Assembly: GCA_017882055.1 (NCBI GenBank)
Contig: JADGQE010000001.1
Location: 1 to 36,016, forward strand
DNA: 36,016 nucleotides
Reading direction: 5' to 3'
DNA from: Thermoflexales bacterium
Lineage (GTDB): Bacteria > Chloroflexota > Anaerolineae > Fen-1058
Shown: one piece after another, positions 3,089 through 28,855 of the stretch
Position numbering within the stretch: position 1 is the stretch's first letter
Layout: the number at the start of each line of letters is the position of its first letter
Notes under the pieces: generated by a model
What the model was told of the DNA's origin: nothing
The model's database searches: none
The model's input: only the letters and a program-made list of their open reading frames with translations
Position numbers and translations under genes: made by a program

Positions 3089-4717
3089 ATGATTGCCGTA
3101 AACCTGACCCATCTCAAACTCGATTTGTTTGCCCGCCCGATCTTAACGGACATCGATTGGGAGATCCATGACGATCGCTGCGTCGGCCTGATTGGCCCCA
3201 ACGGCGCAGGCAAATCGTCACTGCTGAAATTGATCGCTGCCGAACTGGTTCCCGATGGTGGATCGATCACGCGCGCCAGGGGCCTGACGATCGGCTTTCT
3301 GCAGCAAGAACCCGTGCTTGATCCGGAACAGACCGCGCTTGACGAAGTCCTCACCGCTCATGCCGAATTACATTCCGTTGAAGCCGAATTGCAGCGGATC
3401 GAAGCCAAGCTTAGCGACCCGGATGTCTACGGCGACGAAAAAACGTTGGCGCGTGCGCTCGATACGCAACATCATTTGCTGGAGAAGTTCGAGGAACTCG
3501 GCGGCGCGACCTACGAGAAACACGTGCGCGAAACGCTGCGCGGACTCGGCCTCGACGAGCATGATTTTGAAACGAAGGTCGCCGCGTTGAGCGGCGGACA
3601 AAAGAAACTGGTGGGCCTGGCAAAGTTATTGATCACTCAGCCCGATCTGCTGCTGCTCGACGAGCCGGACAATCACCTCGATCTCAACGGCAAAGCGTTT
3701 CTCGAACGGACGATCAACAACTATCACGGCGCGGTCGTCATCGTGTCGCACGATCGTTATCTGCTCGATCGCGTCGTCGACGAAATCGCCGACCTGGAAG
3801 CGGGCCGTGTCGCCGTGTATCCAGGCACCTATTCTGAGTATGCTTTTGAAAAGCAAATGCGTCTCGCTCGCGCCCAACAGCTGTACCACGTCCAACAGCG
3901 CGAAATCAATCGCTTGCAGGCAGCGGCCAAGCAGCTATTGATTTGGGGTCGCACTTACGACAACAATAAGTTCATTCGGCGCGGCAAAGCGATTCTGGGT
4001 CGCATTGAAAAAATGGATAAGATCGACCGGCCTGTGATCGAGCCGAAGCGCATGGGCTTGCAGATCAACGGCTGGCGCGGCAGTAACAAGGTGCTGGAGA
4101 CTAAGAATCTAGGCAAATCATTTACGGATGAGGCGCTCTTCAACAATCTTGATCTGCTCATCCGTCACGGCGAGCGCGTCGGCCTGGTCGGGCCGAACGG
4201 CGCCGGCAAATCAGTCTTGCTCAAAGTGGTGCTGGGCGAGATCGAGCCGGATCACGGCGAGATCATGATCGGGCCGAGCGTCGCCGTGGGTTACTACGCT
4301 CAACAACATGAAACGCTCGATCGATCGCAGACGTTGATCGACGTGATTCGCCATGCCAAAGAATGCGGCGAAGGCGAAGCCGTTGCATTCTTGATCAAGT
4401 TCTTGTTCAGTTATACGCAGACGCGACAGCACGTGGGCGAGCTATCCGGCGGCGAACGCAGCCGCCTGCAACTTGCGCTGTTAATGCTAAGCGCTGCCAA
4501 TTTTCTACTACTCGACGAGCCGACCAACAACCTCGACATCGCTTCAGCCGAGGTGCTGGAACAAGCCCTGGATGATTTTGAAGGCACGGTGTTATGCGTC
4601 TCGCACGATCGCTATTTTCTCGATCGCATCGCCACACGCATCGTCGAACTCGATCGCGGCCAATGGATGGAGTATACGGGCGGGTATTCGGATTACGCTG
4701 AGAAGAAAAGCCGTTGA
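3089..4717 (+). CDS. ABC-F family ATPase (two ABC domains, no TM domain)
   Basis: ATG at 3089 with GGAG 8 nt upstream. Two Walker A motifs (GPNGAGKS twice), two signatures (LSGGQ, LSGGE) and two Walker B motifs (LLLLDEP). A helical interdomain linker is typical of ABC-F translation factors. Confidence 0.9.
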   Translation: MIAVNLTHLKLDLFARPILTDIDWEIHDDRCVGLIGPNGAGKSSLLKLIAAELVPDGGSITRARGLTIGFLQQEPVLDPEQTALDEVLTAHAELHSVEAELQRIEAKLSDPDVYGDEKTLARALDTQHHLLEKFEELGGATYEKHVRETLRGLGLDEHDFETKVAALSGGQKKLVGLAKLLITQPDLLLLDEPDNHLDLNGKAFLERTINNYHGAVVIVSHDRYLLDRVVDEIADLEAGRVAVYPGTYSEYAFEKQMRLARAQQLYHVQQREINRLQAAAKQLLIWGRTYDNNKFIRRGKAILGRIEKMDKIDRPVIEPKRMGLQINGWRGSNKVLETKNLGKSFTDEALFNNLDLLIRHGERVGLVGPNGAGKSVLLKVVLGEIEPDHGEIMIGPSVAVGYYAQQHETLDRSQTLIDVIRHAKECGEGEAVAFLIKFLFSYTQTRQHVGELSGGERSRLQLALLMLSAANFLLLDEPTNNLDIASAEVLEQALDDFEGTVLCVSHDRYFLDRIATRIVELDRGQWMEYTGGYSDYAEKKSR

Positions 4718-24302: not shown

Positions 24303-24349
24303 TGATGATTTCTGATTTGATAGCAAATTCCAGTTTCGTTTACGGGCGT

Positions 24350-24457
24350 GTCATTCCGAGCGTAGCGACGCCTAGCGGCCCACCGGCGCACTGCACCGGA
24401 CATGGGCGGAATCTCTACTATTGTCGTAGAGACCCCTCGCTATGCTCGGGGTGACAC
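24350..24457. repeat. 108-bp nested palindromic repeat element (copy B)
   Basis: GTCATTCCGAGCGTAGCGA ... TCGCTATGCTCGGGGTGAC form 19-bp termini. An inner palindrome (GCCCACCGGCGCACTGCACCGGACATGGGC) is inserted in the left arm. It is about 80 percent identical to copy C at 33628-33735 by hand alignment. Confidence 0.85.
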
Positions 24458-24476
24458 CGTAAATCAACTCGGAAAC

Positions 24477-24505
24477 CACTCAGATTGCAGCCCGATCTCT
24501 GAGTG
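24477..24505 (-). terminator. Hairpin downstream of the aldo-keto reductase gene (possible terminator)
   Basis: CACTCAGA (24477-24484) / TCTGAGTG (24498-24505) with a 13-nt loop. The T-rich tail on the minus strand is modest. Confidence 0.35.
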
Positions 24506-24551
24506 ACTGACTCCCGACCACTGACGACTGACCACTGATTACTAATTACTG
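24503..24551 (-). repeat. Tandem heptamer array, 7 units of CAGTNNT on the minus strand
   Basis: Minus strand reads CAGTAAT TAGTAAT CAGTGGT CAGTCGT CAGTGGT CGGGAGT CAGTCAC. The first units overlap the last codons and the stop of the aldo-keto reductase gene. Confidence 0.8.
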
Positions 24552-25498
24552 CTCACCTGCGCACTCGCCTTTTCCAACGCCGCCACTTCGTCCTCACTCA
24601 ACTTCCAACCCAACGCCCCGAAGTTTTCCTGCGCCTGCCGCAGATTCTTCGCGCCCGGAATGGGTACCGCGCCTTTGCACATCACCCAGTTCAACGCGAC
24701 TTGCGACGGCGTCTTGCCCGCATGCCCCTGCCCAACTTCCTTCATCAAGCCGATCAACGGTTGGACCTTGCTCAGATATTCGCGGTTGTACTGGCGGCTG
24801 CGGCGGCCGGGCGGAACATTATCGGGCGTGTACTTGCCGGTCAGGATGCCTTTAGCAATCGGGCTGTAAGCGATGATCGTCACGCCAAGCTCGCCGCACA
24901 CCTTCATCAGGCCGCTCGTCTCCGGCTTGCGATCGAGCAAACTGTATTCGACTTGATTCGACGCCAGCGGAACACCGCGCTTCGCCAGGGCCGCGTGCGC
25001 CCGCATGGTCTGCTGGACGTTGTAGTTCGACACGCCGACCGTGCGCGTGAGGCCCTGCTGAACCGCATCGGCCAACGCATTCGCCCACGTTTCGACCGAG
25101 ATCAGCGAATACGGGAAGTGAACTTGATACAAGTCTACTTTCGAGACGCCCAATCGGTTCAAACTGTTGTGCAGCGCGTTTAGCAAACTGCCGCCACCCC
25201 AGCGCCACGGCAGCGGCGCGAACTTGGTAGCGAGGACGATCTGATCGCGCGTCTGCGTGTCACGCATGAAGCCACCCACCACCGTCTCCGAGCGGCCGCG
25301 GCCATAGATCTCGGCGGTGTCGATGAAGTTGATGCCCGCCGCTAAGGTGGCATCGTATACCGGTCGTAGATCGGCGTCGCCATACGATTTGCCGTAGCCC
25401 CACATCATCGTATCCCCCCACTGCCACACGCCCAGTCCCAGCGGAGTGACGCGCACATCGGTCTTGCCCAGCGGAATCGTTTCGAGTTGAATGGTCAT
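24542..25498 (-). CDS. Aldo-keto reductase family oxidoreductase
   Basis: ATG at 25498 with AAAGGAGAA upstream. AKR landmarks are LGLG.W.WG, D.AE.YG, a catalytic-tetrad context and a C-terminal IPG....Q..EN. Confidence 0.92.
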   Translation of the reverse strand: MTIQLETIPLGKTDVRVTPLGLGVWQWGDTMMWGYGKSYGDADLRPVYDATLAAGINFIDTAEIYGRGRSETVVGGFMRDTQTRDQIVLATKFAPLPWRWGGGSLLNALHNSLNRLGVSKVDLYQVHFPYSLISVETWANALADAVQQGLTRTVGVSNYNVQQTMRAHAALAKRGVPLASNQVEYSLLDRKPETSGLMKVCGELGVTIIAYSPIAKGILTGKYTPDNVPPGRRSRQYNREYLSKVQPLIGLMKEVGQGHAGKTPSQVALNWVMCKGAVPIPGAKNLRQAQENFGALGWKLSEDEVAALEKASAQVSSN

Positions 25499-25500
25499 AT
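25445..25500. repeat. 56-bp direct repeat, copy 1 (the real 5' end of the AKR gene)
   Basis: 53 of 56 positions are identical to 26429-26484 by hand alignment. Confidence 0.9.
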
Positions 25501-25513
25501 TTCTCCTTTGAAT

Positions 25514-25550
25514 GAAAAGTGACGAGTAAGCCTTGGAATCACTCGTCACT
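25514..25550 (-). terminator. Rho-independent terminator at the end of the three-gene cassette
   Basis: Minus strand reads AGTGACGAGT, a 13-nt loop, ACTCGTCACT, then TTTCATTC. It ends about 17 nt before the AKR start codon. Confidence 0.6.
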
Positions 25551-25583
25551 CAGTTTAATCGTCTCAGAAACCGGAGGTCTCCA

Positions 25584-25847
25584 TCAAGCCATTGCAGCGG
25601 TCGCAGCCGGCTCAGCCTCCAGTTGATATAGAAAGTCTGGCGCGAAGTCCGCTCCGTTTGGCCAGGTTATCGTGCGTGAGTCGGGATCGAGGTAGACACG
25701 GGCAAAGTAGTCCGGGTCGCGCAACGGCTCAAAGATCGGGCCATACAATTCGCGGCGCAGGTTGACGCGCTTGCGAGCACCATCATCAAAAGCCACTTCG
25801 AGTGAGAAAGGGCCGACGACTTTAACCTGGGTCACATGAATGATCAT
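25584..25847 (-). CDS. DUF2442 family protein
   Basis: Pattern V..V......L.V.F.DG....V.L, then P.F.PL.D...F..V......TI.WPNGADF.PD.LY. GAGG lies 5 nt upstream of the ATG. Confidence 0.85.
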   Translation of the reverse strand: MIIHVTQVKVVGPFSLEVAFDDGARKRVNLRRELYGPIFEPLRDPDYFARVYLDPDSRTITWPNGADFAPDFLYQLEAEPAATAAMA

Positions 25848-25859
25848 CTTGACCTCGCT

Positions 25860-26120
25860 TCAATCCAGCGGCTCAATGGAATGCAACGGCTGATGGCCAC
25901 GCGCCAGTTCCCAGTTCGCGCGGAGTTCAGCCTGATGAATGGCCGCCCATTCGAATACTTTGGCTCGCACGTTCCGCGAGAGTGAACCTTCCAAGATCAT
26001 GATCGGGTCAATGCTAACTTCCGCTGCTTCATCGCCATGTTCCGCATGAAAGTGCGGTGGCAAATGATCACGGTAAAACAACATGATCTTGATTCCGTCA
26101 AAGATACAGATAGTAGGCAT
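25860..26120 (-). CDS. DUF4160 family protein
   Basis: MPTI..FDGI.I..Y..DH.PPHFHAE.G..EA...I, then L....EWA..H..EL..NWE. These are hallmark residues of DUF4160. Confidence 0.85.
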   Translation of the reverse strand: MPTICIFDGIKIMLFYRDHLPPHFHAEHGDEAAEVSIDPIMILEGSLSRNVRAKVFEWAAIHQAELRANWELARGHQPLHSIEPLD

Positions 26121-26126
26121 TACGAA

Positions 26127-26315
26127 TCACTGCGCGCCAGCGGACGCCCGGCTCAAATCATATAAATCCTGCTGGCTCCAGGCGTCATTTGAATCCACCA
26201 CCCAACCAGACGCGGACTCGGCCAGGTCGTCCATGATTAATCGTGCCAGGCGCAAACGTTCAATTGCGGGCAGCCGTTTGATTTGATCCTGATAAATGGA
26301 TTCGAAGGTATTCAT
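26127..26315 (-). CDS. Small addiction-module-component-like protein (Unstab_antitox-like)
   Basis: ATG at 26315 lies 5 nt after GGGAGGG. The GTG at 26321 in the ORF track overlaps that Shine-Dalgarno sequence. The LPAIERLRLARLIMDDL motif resembles the LP..ERL.L...L.DSL antitoxin-component motif. Confidence 0.55.
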   Translation of the reverse strand: MNTFESIYQDQIKRLPAIERLRLARLIMDDLAESASGWVVDSNDAWSQQDLYDLSRASAGAQ

Positions 26316-26355
26316 CGTCACCCTCCCGACAATCTTCGCGTCTCATTCCACAAGA

Positions 26356-26364
26356 ATTATAGCA
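26356..26364 (-). promoter_or_regulatory. Extended -10 element (TGCTATAAT) upstream of the cassette
   Basis: Minus strand reads TGC-TATAAT, about 35 nt upstream of the 26315 start region. I found no convincing -35 box. Confidence 0.35.
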
Positions 26365-26482
26365 CAGCGTTGTTTGACGCTTTCGCGCTGGTGAATGACT
26401 GATGAACAGCGTAGGGGCGACCCTCGTAAGTGATGCGCACATCGGTTTTGCCCAGCGGGATCGTTTCGAGTTGAATGGTCAT
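26357..26482 (-). pseudogene. Duplicated 5' remnant of the aldo-keto reductase gene
   Basis: It encodes MTIQLETIPLGKTDVRIT, matching the first 18 residues of the intact AKR with one V-to-I change. It then diverges and stops after 41 codons. Confidence 0.75.
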
Positions 26483-26484
26483 AT
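26429..26484. repeat. 56-bp direct repeat, copy 2
   Basis: 53 of 56 positions are identical to 25445-25500. Confidence 0.9.
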
Positions 26485-26610
26485 CACTTTCCATGTGTCG
26501 GAGAATAAAGCGCAGAGTCGCTGAGATTGTATCACCTTCTCTGCAACCCTGCGGTGAGTTGGCATTCGTGCGGGCGAATGGAAAGCAGTCTTCAACGGAT
26601 GATTCGCACT

Positions 26611-26649
26611 CGGATAAACGGATGCTATCCGTTCACGTCCGTTTATCCG
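26611..26649. promoter_or_regulatory. Palindromic unit 1: 11-bp arms CGGATAAACGG / CCGTTTATCCG enclosing a perfect ACGGAT-GCT-ATCCGT palindrome
   Basis: Arms at 26611-26621 and 26639-26649. The inner 6-3-6 palindrome is at 26618-26632. Additional ACGGAT/ATCCG words flank it. Confidence 0.6.
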
Positions 26650-26747
26650 TTTTACATCCGCTGAAAGCCTCTCACCCGCTGCGATAAGTTTCATCGGCCA
26701 TAGGTTCCTCCACGACAAATACCGGAGTTAAACCAAACGCACCGCAG

Positions 26748-26785
26748 CGGATAAACGAATGTGTATTGCGTCATCCGTTTATCCG
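26748..26785. promoter_or_regulatory. Palindromic unit 2 with the same arms (CGGATAAACGA / CCGTTTATCCG)
   Basis: Arms at 26748-26758 and 26775-26785 with a 16-nt spacer. The spacer contains GTATTGCGT, the word also found in the 1733-1779 hairpin. Confidence 0.6.
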
Positions 26786-26829
26786 TTGCCTATTCGTTGC
26801 CTATTCGTTGCCTATTCGCTGCCTCACGC
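26775..26829. repeat. Five phased 11-bp units: three perfect TTGCCTATTCG copies flanked by two related units
   Basis: CCGTTTATCCG | TTGCCTATTCG x3 (26786-26818) | CTGCCTCACGC. It starts 1 nt after the stop of the HdrD-like gene. Confidence 0.85.
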
Positions 26830-26830
26830 A

Positions 26831-28855
26831 TTACAACTGTTCCGCCACAATCTCCGCCACGTCCTTGACTTGCATCTCACTCTTAGCCGCTTTGGCCGCA
26901 TCCGTCAGCATGACCATGCAGAACGGGCAGCCGACGGCCAGCGTATCCTTGCCCGTCGCCATTGCTTCCGCAAAACGATTGGCGCTGACGCGTTCGCGGC
27001 CATGCTCCTCTTCCTTCCACATTTGCGCGCCGCCCGCGCCACAGCAGAACGAGTTATTGCGATGACGCGGCAGTTCGGTGATCGACGCGCCGGTCGAATG
27101 CAATACGTTGCGTGGCGCATCGTAAACTTGATTGTGCCGACCGAGGTAGCAGGGATCATGGAAGGTCACATCGGCTCGCGCCGCTTCATACGGCTTGAGT
27201 TTACCCAGCGCGTACAGTTCTTCGATCAACTGCGTGTGATGAATCACGGTGTAGTTGCCACCGAACGCCGGGTATTCATTCGATAGGGTATGCAGGCAAT
27301 GCGGGCACGTCGTCACGATGCGCTTCGGCGCGATTTCATTCAACATCTCGACATTGCCCGTTGCCAACTCGAAGAACAAAGCCTCGTTGCCTGCGCGCCG
27401 CGCCGAATCGCCGGTGCAGCGTTCGTTCTTGCCCAAGACCGCAAAGTTCACACCAGCCGCGTTCAGAATCTTCGCGAACGACTGCGCCGTCTTTTGCGCG
27501 CGAGCATCAGTCGATGGCGCGCAGCCCACCCACCACAAAATATCCGGCTCCGGGTTCTGCTCGATCGTAGGCACGCTGAGTCCCTTCGCCCAGTCCATTC
27601 GAGATTCGGGCGAGATATTCCACGGGTTGCCGGTGCGCTCCATGCCACGGAAGGCTGGCTGCAACTGCGGCGGGAATTGATTGTCCATCAGGACCAGGTT
27701 GCGGCGGATATCGAGGATGTCGCGCATCGGCTCGTTGTTGACGGGGCAAACCTCGACGCACGCGCCGCAAGTCGTGCACGCCCACACCGCTTCGGCGCTG
27801 ATAGCAAAATCGAGCAGGCTCACTTCCGATTCTTTGCCTGCCGCCAACTTCGCGCCTTCTTGATTGATCTGATAACGCTTGTTGATCTCCAGCGCCGACG
27901 GCGACAGCACCTTGCCAGTGTGGTTGGCCGGGCAGACATCCTGGCAGCGATTGCACATGATGCAGGCGTAGGCATCCATCAACTGCGGCTGCGACAGATG
28001 CTCCAATTTCGCCGCGCCGAATTGTGTAAGGCTTTCGTCGTCGAAGTTGATCTTGCTCAATTCGCCCATCGATTTGCGCCTGGGCTTGAGCATGAAGTTC
28101 AACGGCGCGAAGAAGATATGGATGTGCTTCGAGTAGAGGAAGTAGGGCACGAACAGCAGAATCGATCCGAGCGCGCACCAAAAGAAGAAATGCTGGAAAA
28201 ATATGAGCGTCTCATGCGGCACGGACCATATCTGGCTTAGAAAAGTAGCGAAGGGCTGCCATGGATCGCCGACACGACACCCAACACAGAGTAAAGAACC
28301 ACGCTGTGCAATCTGGGTACTCTCGCCCAGGAACCGCGAACCGACATGGAACAGAATGAACAATCCAACGATCAACGAATCGCGCTTGATGCCGAATGCC
28401 GCTTTGGGATGCAACAGCGTGTTTTTGTTAAAGCCGAAGATGTGTTGGCCCTTGACCAATCGGCGCAGCAACATCGACGCCATGCCAACCAGCACGCCCA
28501 CGGTCAACAGATCGGCGATCAGACGATAGAGATTGCCGATGAGGTCGGTTCCCAGGAAAACAAAGCCGGAGAAGAACGCCTGCAAGCCATCACCGACGTT
28601 GACCAGCAGATAATACGTGAAGCCCCAGGCGATGAAGGCGTGGGCGATGCTCGGCCACAAACGGCGCTTCAACACGGTGCGCTGCGTGACAAAGACACTA
28701 AGACCGGCACGCAAGCGTGAGCCGAAGTGATCGGTTGCCAGACTGCCCGTGCCGCGCCGGATGATGCGGATGATTCGATCGGCGGCGCGATAAGCCGCAT
28801 AGGCCGAAGCCAAGGCCAACAACGTAAAGAGTATCTTCTCGACGGTTGTGAGCAT
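26831..28855 (-). CDS. Membrane-anchored (Fe-S)-binding oxidoreductase, HdrD/GlpC-like (two 4Fe-4S motifs plus two CCG domains)
   Basis: The N-terminal polytopic domain ends in SKHIHIFFAPLN. It is followed by CIMCNRCQDVCP and CTTCGACVEVCP. Cys-rich CCG-type segments follow (WWVGC, TCPHC, DPCYLGR, FCCGAGG, GCPFC). Confidence 0.88.
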   Translation of the reverse strand: MLTTVEKILFTLLALASAYAAYRAADRIIRIIRRGTGSLATDHFGSRLRAGLSVFVTQRTVLKRRLWPSIAHAFIAWGFTYYLLVNVGDGLQAFFSGFVFLGTDLIGNLYRLIADLLTVGVLVGMASMLLRRLVKGQHIFGFNKNTLLHPKAAFGIKRDSLIVGLFILFHVGSRFLGESTQIAQRGSLLCVGCRVGDPWQPFATFLSQIWSVPHETLIFFQHFFFWCALGSILLFVPYFLYSKHIHIFFAPLNFMLKPRRKSMGELSKINFDDESLTQFGAAKLEHLSQPQLMDAYACIMCNRCQDVCPANHTGKVLSPSALEINKRYQINQEGAKLAAGKESEVSLLDFAISAEAVWACTTCGACVEVCPVNNEPMRDILDIRRNLVLMDNQFPPQLQPAFRGMERTGNPWNISPESRMDWAKGLSVPTIEQNPEPDILWWVGCAPSTDARAQKTAQSFAKILNAAGVNFAVLGKNERCTGDSARRAGNEALFFELATGNVEMLNEIAPKRIVTTCPHCLHTLSNEYPAFGGNYTVIHHTQLIEELYALGKLKPYEAARADVTFHDPCYLGRHNQVYDAPRNVLHSTGASITELPRHRNNSFCCGAGGAQMWKEEEHGRERVSANRFAEAMATGKDTLAVGCPFCMVMLTDAAKAAKSEMQVKDVAEIVAEQL

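Follow-up and report, generated by a model that had tools for sequence, protein, structure and literature searches.

A DhiTA-type cassette bracketed by a 56-bp duplication of an aldo-keto reductase 5′ end, and hints of an undescribed movement of 'addiction' genes

Chromosomal toxin-antitoxin modules are exchanged horizontally and occupy 'regular' chromosomal positions and, to our knowledge, no mechanism of mobility is known for them beyond hitch-hiking on plasmids, phages and integrons. For restriction-modification (RM) modules, insertion without the help of mobility genes is on record, the target being duplicated over a long stretch of variable length (PMC2853133; PMC3874152), a process designated 'insertion with long target duplication' (Nobusato et al., 2000, Gene 259:99; Furuta, Abe and Kobayashi, 2010, PMC2853133; reviewed in PMC3874152). 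In the literature we found long target duplication described for RM modules only, with no report for toxin-antitoxin modules. [quoted passage not shown] Models for both DhiT and DhiA are included in NCBIfam.

The locus described here lies in a 36,016-nt stretch of DNA from a Thermoflexales bacterium (hereafter the window), with the genes for the aldo-keto reductase (AKR), the cassette and an Fe-S oxidoreductase all on the minus strand (Table 1). A repeat search revealed a 56-nt direct repeat (25445-25500 versus 26429-26484; 53/56 identity, 984-nt spacing), which is the sole match of the region within the window by blastn (E 2e-19); the computed alignment returned the same coordinates and identity as a previous sequence-only reading of this DNA. 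Copy A contains the AKR ATG (25498-25496) with 2 nt upstream and 18 codons (positions -2 to +54), and the copies differ at three sites, ATT/ATC (Ile), AAG/AAA (Lys) and GTC/ATC (Val/Ile). That reading had counted two synonymous changes and one Val/Ile, as found here, but its deduction of a coding past for both copies lacks statistical support, since there are only three differences. The 41-codon dead-end ORF that it saw opened by the upstream copy was located as well (26482 to 26357).

Table 1. Coordinates, strand and supporting evidence for features of the AKR locus.
Feature	Position in window	Strand	Evidence
AKR, intact, 318 aa	24542..25498	-	Pfam E 7e-66; 92% identical to L264 protein
Repeat copy A, duplicated AKR 5′ end joined to the functional gene	25445..25500	-	Repeat search, blastn, L264 alignment
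Inserted segment, 928 bp, without terminal inverted repeats	25501..26428	-	Absent from L264, L084, L004
AAGGAG Shine-Dalgarno serving AKR, within the last 10 nt of the insert	25503..25508	-	Sequence reading, L264 alignment
Hairpin, 13-bp stem, then UUUCAUU; terminator-like cassette end	25517..25551	-	RNA fold
DUF2442 protein (PF10387), DhiA-like antitoxin, 87 aa	25584..25847	-	Pfam E 1.6e-12, NCBIfam DhiA E 1.5e-4
DUF4160 protein (PF13711), DhiT-like toxin, 86 aa	25860..26120	-	Pfam E 1.5e-17, NCBIfam toxin_DhiT
orf62, small antitoxin-like protein, 'addiction module component' type	26127..26315	-	Weak Pfam/TIGR02574 matches
Extended -10-like TGCTATAAT, preceded by small palindrome AGCGTcaaacaACGCT; candidate cassette promoter/operator	26356..26364	-	Sequence reading
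Dead-end ORF, 41 codons, from the orphaned AKR ATG; MTIQLETIPLGKTDVRIT then unrelated residues	26357..26482	-	ORF list, sequence reading
Repeat copy B, original AKR 5′ end (-2 to +54), severed from the gene	26429..26484	-	Contiguous with native upstream region in L264 alignment
Native Fe-S oxidoreductase/AKR spacer with native AKR upstream region	26485..26830	-	L264 alignment
Fe-S oxidoreductase (CCG and 4Fe-4S domains), conserved neighbour upstream of AKR	26831..28855	-	Pfam; synteny with L004, L084, L264

Comparison with three relatives (loci L264, L084 and L004) revealed the corresponding empty site. In L264, whose AKR is 92% identical in amino acids and about 90% in nucleotides, the Fe-S oxidoreductase is separated from AKR by a 161-nt spacer that holds no cassette, and MoxR follows; L084 (AKR 74% identical in amino acids) and L004 (63%) are likewise empty, with the Fe-S oxidoreductase directly before AKR. 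Positions 1600-2561 of L264 align to 25499-24538 of the window, positions 1484-1536 to 26714-26662 and positions 1539-1653 to 26544-26430, the window spacer carrying about 117 nt (26545-26661) missing from L264, and both repeat copies converge on one L264 stretch of 54 nt (1600-1653). Since the single AKR 5′ end of L264 aligns to both copies, and L084 and L004 are empty, these alignments show an insertion of 928 bp at AKR codon 18 with duplication of 56 bp of host sequence. The sequence-only reading had proposed a search among relatives for AKR in its uninterrupted state, and the three empty sites, with AKR directly following the Fe-S oxidoreductase, bear out its view that a self-contained cassette entered the 5′ end of this gene.

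It had also proposed that the element supplied a replacement 5′ end to AKR, by analogy with integrative elements, and in this it is contradicted on two counts. Compared to L264, six differences are common to copies A and B, and the L264 state at the three discordant sites is found in A at two and in B at one. Because the copies have these six differences in common and disagree at only three sites, split two and one, the alignment shows that the repeat arose in situ, by duplication of sequence belonging to the host itself. Native copy B and copy A are equally diverged from L264, so there is no sign of co-imported donor DNA and we rejected an origin of copy A in imported AKR sequence; the first 450 nt of AKR are more diverged from L264 than the remainder, and copy B equally so. 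The second count concerns the analogy itself, in that homologous modules elsewhere are flanked by repeats of unrelated sequence, for which reason the repeat is best described as a target duplication and not as an element-borne att site.

Three intact genes lie within the repeats. The first, orf62, has a called 62-aa counterpart in both L001 and L003, and its matches to Pfam Unstab_antitox (E 0.008) and TIGR02574 (E 4e-4) are both below cut-off. The DUF4160 protein scores 64 bits versus a Pfam cut-off of 23 and 57.5 bits versus NCBIfam toxin_DhiT, under the 100-bit equivalog cut-off, and is a homologue, not an equivalog; the match of the DUF2442 protein to DhiA is weak, with 22 bits of a 200-bit equivalog cut-off. 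We collected 212 DUF4160 homologues, and the window protein retains all of their invariant residues (H-x-P-x-H-F-H, D and H-Q-x-E). Its AF2 model (pLDDT 96.6) had no Foldseek match in PDB (best E = 1), in agreement with PMC12065111, and because of this a toxin activity cannot be assigned; an HUH-type nuclease reading of the 'HFH' motif was likewise rejected, the model being confident and yet the search against PDB empty. DUF2442 lies downstream of DUF4160 after a gap of 12 nt (25859-25848). The same toxin-first order is found in all related loci, and in most of the other close-subfamily loci DUF4160 is followed by a DUF2442 partner 71-85% identical (60% in L178). With a DUF4160 gene and an adjacent, tightly spaced DUF2442 gene downstream, the cassette has the predicted make-up of a DhiTA-type module. 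The earlier recognition of the DUF4160/DUF2442 pair was correct, but not the statement that such pairs have no established function, which is outdated by the validation of DhiTA (PMC8198452).

[quoted passage not shown] The extended -10 (TGCTATAAT, 26364-26356) and the GGGAGGG Shine-Dalgarno before orf62 (26327-26321) were found as previously described, although a strict consensus scanner called neither promoter nor terminator in 25300-26950. The terminator had been described with a 10-bp stem; the hairpin exists (25551-25517), but its stem has 13 bp by fold, and with a loop of more than 8 nt it escaped the strict scanner. By its z of -1.19, the 92-nt fold is unexceptional. We consider promoter, Shine-Dalgarno and terminator-like signals for the cassette plausible. 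The hairpin ends 18 nt upstream of the AKR ATG, and the Shine-Dalgarno of AKR (AAGGAG) comes from the insert; since the native upstream region adjoins copy B in the L264 alignment, both signals ahead of copy A are placed by this alignment among the DNA that arrived with the insert. A 10-mer common to the L084 spacer had pointed to a native origin of this hairpin and was overruled by the L264 alignment. AKR, a housekeeping gene, has been rewired, being severed from its native upstream region and thereby from a conserved small ORF situated there, and standing now behind the cassette hairpin with a Shine-Dalgarno supplied by the insert. Its reliance on read-through from the cassette is plausible. 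That the insert happens to provide a well-spaced Shine-Dalgarno for AKR is a point against the account of the insertion given below. There was no Rfam match in 25300-27000, no nucleotide match of the 928-bp insert in plasmid and phage collections and, by blastn, no further cassette copy within the window.

The nearest cassettes, P0002 and P0004, are 83-84% identical in amino acids. Close DUF4160-DUF2442 homologues (about 75-85% amino acid identity) occur in unrelated contexts with their own, unrelated repeats: 74 nt in L164 (89% identity), 67 nt in L165-168 (90%), with an orthologous site in L259-261, and 50 nt in L262 (86%). Their local alignment scores were 33-54 versus a shuffle maximum of 14, and the targets include a gene 3′ end and an intergenic hairpin, among others. 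Flanking repeats are present in four of the eight independent close-subfamily contexts, window included, and lacking in L170, L174/175, L178 and L263. Distant homologues contributed two further tight repeats (26 and 38 nt) in 44 contexts; nearly all distant or plasmid-borne homologues are without them. Six plasmid-borne homologues have no tight flanking repeat, the single plasmid candidate being a 39-nt repeat that spans three genes in a Thermus plasmid. The signature is either quickly lost or not universal, which also counts against the account below. Across 1.75 Mb of compared loci, isolated repeats (40-80 nt, at least 85% identity, 300-2500 nt spacing) were found almost exclusively around DUF4160-DUF2442 modules, with a background close to nil; that the sample is small and that the AKR case itself prompted the search for recurrence are further points against. 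In two cases the repeat border falls at a gene terminus: in L165 it coincides exactly with a stop codon, and in the window it lies 2 nt ahead of the AKR ATG. Borders of this kind, another point against the account below, are not predicted by random staggered breaks unless selection explains them.

The repeats of the window, L164, L165, L262, L186 and L256 are mutually unrelated, and the modules have no ends in common. The best terminal inverted repeat was no better than shuffles in six of six inserts, no end motif was shared between modules, whose DNA homology stops at the ORF borders, and beyond the ORFs the loci had no conserved sequence in common, hence no attC-type shared site. GC content is 5-7 points lower in the inserts than in their flanks, and Pfam revealed no recombinase or transposase domain in 25501-26428. 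A transposon or MITE was rejected for lack of terminal inverted repeats and shared ends and because the duplications vary (26-74 nt); an integron gene cassette was rejected for lack of an attC-like sequence common to the loci.

We consider it probable that a DhiTA-type cassette entered AKR at codon 18 in a single illegitimate, end-independent insertion that duplicated 56 bp of the target, and that such events recur in the subfamily. The comparisons show the insertion, a single-copy target in the empty site, copies formed in situ, recurrence at unrelated targets and no mobility genes or defined ends; the molecular mechanism we infer as follows. A promoter-bearing DUF4160/DUF2442 cassette with an extra antitoxin-like gene would have entered an Anaerolineae-like chromosome, where breaks or nascent strands with a stagger of about 56 nt would have received the two ends of the foreign fragment before gap filling, in a process resembling the target duplication of transposons but with a long and variable stagger. 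The orphaned original 5′ end would keep the native upstream region, and the second copy would complete the AKR frame behind the insert. Persistence might be due to the toxin-antitoxin pair penalising its own loss, and to survivors being limited to insertions whose duplication preserves the host gene. Additionally, the repeats could render the insert excisable by homologous recombination as a circle (module plus one repeat), which would make spread to the same site in relatives possible. Set against the criteria of Furuta et al. (2010), the locus has a complete module in a 928-bp insert (<20 kb) without mobility genes, a flanking direct repeat longer than 30 bp (56 nt) and repeat copies that both align to one empty-site sequence, that of L264.

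Homologous recombination could instead have brought the cassette and one repeat copy from a very close relative already bearing a repeat-flanked insertion, either as an excised circle, Campbell-style via the 56 bp, or as a linear fragment anchored in AKR with one illegitimate join. The linear route amounts to homology-facilitated illegitimate recombination. The repeat copies are indeed non-identical (53/56), as allelic copies would be, but A and B have in common 6 of their 7-8 differences from L264, so that any donor would have been nearly identical to the recipient, and no copy-A-specific divergence step is seen along AKR. In L165, four of the seven differences between copies are synonymous and the remnant retains the stop codon; the synonymous excess among 10 differences is nonetheless not significant (estimated P about 0.05-0.3, model-dependent). 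Borders at start and stop codons, where inter-genome homology would begin or end, the site common to the two related lineages of L165 and L259, and the fact that the RM cases of long target duplication in the Furuta repeat-flank screen come mostly from naturally competent species (PMC2853133) all agree with such spread. However, a duplication-generating insertion would still be required to create the initial repeat at every one of the four unrelated sites, and overall we regard this route as unlikely. A diversity-generating retroelement was also considered for L165 and rejected, as the differences show no adenine specificity and a reverse transcriptase is lacking.

The lengths of the close-subfamily repeats (50-74 nt, n = 4) span a suspiciously narrow range for an unguided repair accident, which speaks against the account of the insertion given above. 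It is quite unlikely, in our judgement, that the Chloroflexota DhiTA-like modules are minimal autonomous mobile elements, whose own proteins, or a recruited host pathway, would cut staggers of about 50-75 nt. If they were, the invariant residues of DUF4160, in a fold without a solved relative, would form a DNA-processing active site, the long duplication would later allow circle excision and re-invasion, and the life cycle would be like that proposed, never demonstrated, for RM modules.

We give very little credence to a site-specific integrative element or its remnant, with the surrogate AKR 5′ end as att and integration carried out in trans by a recombinase of the tyrosine or serine type. 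Direct repeats of 50-70 nt at gene ends are typical of attL/attR, the distant homologue L186 adjoins an integrase-like ORF in a viral contig, and 'recombinase family' genes adjoin some of the plasmid copies; nevertheless, the 928 bp hold no recombinase and none is evident in the called neighbours (Fe-S oxidoreductase, peroxiredoxin and MoxR), a common att core is absent, the repeats being unrelated per locus, and both copies come from the host lineage, by which an element-borne att with its integrase is largely refuted. Such elements would also have to have been trimmed four times independently to a bare toxin-antitoxin pair lying 10-310 nt from an intact att, which is implausible.

Decay of a tandem AKR paralogue, with the cassette replacing most of the upstream copy, is hardly credible in spite of the AKR 5′ fragment upstream of an intact AKR: none of the three relatives has the two full tandem paralogues that the sequence-only reading had allowed for, but one AKR only, immediately following the Fe-S oxidoreductase, so that these empty sites refute it, the sequence before copy A is unlike the DNA downstream of AKR, where a tandem junction would require similarity, and the same architecture is found at non-paralogous targets.

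The AKR locus thus offers a clean before/after pair, with an empty site at about 90% nucleotide identity, and belongs to a signature that recurs in one toxin-antitoxin subfamily, with four unrelated targets each duplicated over 50-74 nt. [quoted passage not shown] The duplication signature can be surveyed across genomes, and circles and empty sites can be traced in reads.

Among known systems, integron toxin-antitoxin cassettes are similarly small, integrase-less units between repeats, but their attC sites are cassette-owned and related, whereas the repeats described here are target-derived and unrelated between loci. IS1634 is a DDE transposon with unusually long, variable target duplications. 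Such duplications, of 19-26 bp for Mycoplasma IS1630 (cited in PMC2853133), are a feature in common with the cassettes, although these transposons have a transposase and terminal inverted repeats, neither of which is present here. Phages, ICEs and genomic islands with att sites in tRNA or protein genes likewise leave direct repeats at a gene end and the target gene intact; unlike them, the modules described here have no recombinase, and their repeat is host-derived instead of element-borne and differs in sequence at every locus.

The cassette shares with DhiTA (PMC8198452) and the Thermus pairs (PMC12724237) the two Pfam domains, the toxin-first order, the tight spacing and a promoter of its own, here a candidate. 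It differs from DhiTA in that its proteins, with 57.5 of 100 and 22 of 200 bits, do not reach the equivalog cut-offs, in the length of the antitoxin (87 aa here versus 160 aa for DhiA) and in the extra upstream orf62. [quoted passage not shown] Both involve a small post-segregational-killing module without transposase, integrase or inverted ends, flanked by direct repeats of more than 30 bp and variable length that align to one copy in an empty-site genome and often overlap gene ends. Unlike the RM systems, the type II toxin-antitoxin pair carried here has no known DNA-cleaving activity on which an explanation could draw; further differences are that the bacteria concerned are Chloroflexota, that recurrence is seen inside a single protein subfamily, and that the repeats are shorter and narrower in range, 50-74 nt versus 45 to over 400 for RM modules.

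All genes in the neighbourhood of the cassette are on the minus strand. As claimed in the sequence-only reading, a repeat search found a direct repeat (copies A and B; 56 nt, 53/56 identical, spacing 984 nt). It was the single one reported, and blastn of the region retrieved no further copies in the whole window (E 2e-19 for the pair). That reading was also correct in that the copies differ by one Val/Ile and two synonymous changes, that a dead-end ORF of 41 codons starts in copy B and, from Pfam, in the identities of the DUF4160, DUF2442 and aldo-keto reductase (AKR) genes. Copy A spans 18 AKR codons plus 2 nt 5′ of the ATG. The similarity of orf62 to "addiction module component" families was sub-threshold only. 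The promoter-like TGCTATAAT and the hairpin that had been described are both in the sequence, although a strict consensus scanner called neither. Elsewhere in the window, a 54-nt direct repeat (81%; 3180-3232 and 4176-4228) is internal to a 547-aa ORF.

Features of the cassette neighbourhood, in order of transcription
Feature	Position	Strand	Pfam E value
Fe-S oxidoreductase with CCG domains	28855-26831	minus	
Spacer, 346 nt	26830-26485	minus	
Repeat copy B	26484-26429	minus	
orf62	26315-26127	minus	
DUF4160 gene	26120-25860	minus	1.5e-17
DUF2442 gene	25847-25584	minus	1.6e-12
Hairpin	25551-25517	minus	
AAGGAG	25508-25503	minus	
Repeat copy A	25500-25445	minus	
AKR (copy A forms its first 56 nt, counting 2 nt upstream)	25498-24542	minus	7e-66
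MoxR ATPase	24326-23334	minus	

The best genome matches of the AKR were from Anaerolineae and other Chloroflexota MAGs. The filled arrangement also occurs in three identical metagenome contigs (L001-L003), and the comparison with relatives that had been proposed as a check revealed three loci without the cassette. In L004 and L084 (AKR 63% and 74% identical in amino acids), the Fe-S oxidoreductase is followed after 57–68 nt by the AKR, and in L084 then by MoxR. Judged from the alignments, the decisive empty site is that of L264, whose AKR shows 92% protein and around 90% DNA identity to that of the window, with the oxidoreductase stop at 1439 and the AKR start at 1601. Positions 1539-1653 of L264 align with window 26544-26430 (copy B and the native sequence upstream of it) and positions 1600-2561 with window 25499-24538 (copy A plus the AKR), both alignments overlapping on one 54-nt stretch of L264. 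This indicates an insertion of 928 bp (25501-26428) at AKR position +54 with duplication of −2 to +54. It follows that the original 5′ region of the AKR is copy B with its upstream DNA, and that the hairpin and the Shine-Dalgarno sequence preceding copy A are insert DNA. The proposed insertion of the cassette into the 5′ end of the AKR therefore stands, whereas the replacement 5′ end thought to be borne by the element is instead a host-derived target duplication; the analogy with integrative elements failed its defining tests and was rejected.

Relative to L264, copies A and B have six differences in common; of the three sites at which the two copies disagree, A retains the L264 state at two and B at one. 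Both copies thus descend from the sequence of their own lineage, with slight drift in each since duplication. Divergence of the AKR from L264 is higher over its first 450 nt than further downstream in the gene; since the native copy B is equally diverged, this comparison gives no sign of donor DNA imported with the cassette.

Other differences occur in the spacers. Around 117 nt of the oxidoreductase-AKR spacer (window 26545-26661) are absent from L264 and contain GGATAAACGGA / TCCGTTTATCC palindromes, and another copy of the motif forms a hairpin right after the oxidoreductase stop codon; this sequence could represent a small repeat element of the palindromic type. The window also contains three to four copies of an 11-nt tandem repeat, GGCAACGAATA, its L264 counterpart being a 7-nt tandem repeat, TAATACG (further motif and repeat coordinates, 26744-26789 and 26780-26823). 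A 35-codon upstream ORF in L264 (1498-1605), whose stop codon overlaps the AKR ATG, keeps its start (MADETYRSG) and C-terminal part (EKVIQSQRLCALFSDT) in the window (26699-26670 and 26540-26479), where it is interrupted by the extra 117 nt and severed from the AKR by the cassette. The AKR-MoxR spacers (215 nt, 24327-24541, vs. 62 nt in L264, 2558-2619) do not align and constitute a second indel separating these close relatives. The 10-mer TGACGAGTGA is common to the hairpin (25549-25540) and the oxidoreductase-AKR spacer of L084 (293-302) and was reached in 0/300 shuffles; because the L264 alignment assigns the hairpin to the insert, this sharing is unexplained or due to chance.

Hundreds of homologs of the DUF4160 protein share 70–84% identity with it, mostly on Chloroflexota metagenome contigs. 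In all seven further independent genomic contexts retrieved for close homologs, the DUF4160-DUF2442 pair is flanked by unrelated housekeeping genes, and three have their own long flanking direct repeats (four of eight with the window). The repeat of L164 (74 nt, 89%) duplicates intergenic sequence; that of L165-168 (67 nt, 90%), the last 22 codons plus stop of an upstream 785-aa gene; and that of L262 (50 nt, 86%) encloses 776 bp. L259-261 share the L165 repeat at their orthologous site, where the remnant copy contains a 5-nt indel. The inter-repeat segments of L164 (3973-4570) and L165 (3955-4552) are both exactly 598 bp, with different gene and arm lengths. Local-alignment scores of the repeats were 33–54, against a shuffle maximum of 14, and self-comparison of 1.75 Mb of collected loci found similar short, high-identity, isolated repeats at such spacing almost nowhere else, the sole exception being a repetitive array (L089). 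Among distant homologs (34–53% aa identity, IMG/VR contigs), the pair is tightly flanked by repeats in 2/44 distinct contexts (26 and 38 nt). In one, L186 (2459-3186 and 3285-4313), the duplicated 26 nt are a terminator-like hairpin and the module is immediately 5′ of a tyrosine-integrase-like ORF. Six plasmid copies had no such tight flanking repeats; the one candidate is a 39-nt repeat (85%; 1418-1455 and 2841-2879) on Thermus thermophilus plasmid pTthSNM3-3d (L266), which encloses DUF4160, DUF2442 and one hypothetical gene. In L178, a lone DUF2442 gene (287-607) is on the opposite strand, 2.4 kb from the pair.

The statement that the pair has no established function is outdated: DUF4160/DUF2442 constitute DhiTA of Dickeya dadantii, an experimentally validated type II toxin-antitoxin system (PMC8198452), and the window proteins match the NCBIfam DhiT and DhiA models with scores under the equivalog cut-offs. 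Such ORF pairs raise plasmid persistence in Thermus (PMC12724237), and Menshen systems, too, include DUF4160 as an effector domain (PMC12065111). The AF2 model of the DUF4160 protein was confident (pLDDT 96.6) but had no fold neighbors in the PDB.

The repeat sequences are mutually unrelated across loci, similarity between modules ends at the ORF borders, and no terminal inverted repeats or common end motifs were found among the compared inserts. [quoted passage not shown] Because repeat length is variable and the ends are undefined, our best inference for this locus is an illegitimate repair or replication route rather than a dedicated transposase: both ends of a foreign DNA fragment bearing the cassette would have been joined, at a stagger of around 56 nt, to breaks or nascent strands, with filling of the gaps. 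Addiction and survivorship would retain the cassette, and insertion this near a gene end would be tolerated only where duplication restores an intact gene. Through RecA, the repeats should further allow a circle to be excised and then to re-enter the same site in related genomes, which could explain the site common to L165 and L259.

Some observations leave room for a homology-assisted route and, with low probability, for active involvement of the module's own proteins: the narrow length range of close-subfamily repeats (50–74 nt), the absence of repeats from half of the contexts, the origin in the insert of a well-spaced AAGGAG for the AKR, and, in two of the four loci, repeat borders that coincide with gene ends. 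These borders (window 25500, 2 nt 5′ of the AKR ATG; L165 3954, exactly the stop of the 785-aa gene) could result from selection that keeps genes intact or could hint at the mechanism.

In the literature searched, we found no report of long target duplication for toxin-antitoxin modules. The pattern, drawn from sequence comparison of eight contexts, offers a concrete, surveyable handle on their entry into chromosomes. The closest known phenomenon to the illegitimate insertion favored here is that of restriction-modification gene complexes, for which "insertion with long target duplication" was defined by genome comparison (PMC2853133, citing Nobusato et al., 2000; PMC3874152). There, a complete addiction module with undefined ends and no mobility genes is flanked by repeats that exceed 30 bp, vary in length and both match a single sequence in the empty-site genome (PMC2853133; PMC3874152). 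Double-strand breakage has been suggested for the insertion of restriction-modification modules. Every testable feature of this insertion mode was found at the window locus, whose architecture, as far as sequence can tell, matches it.
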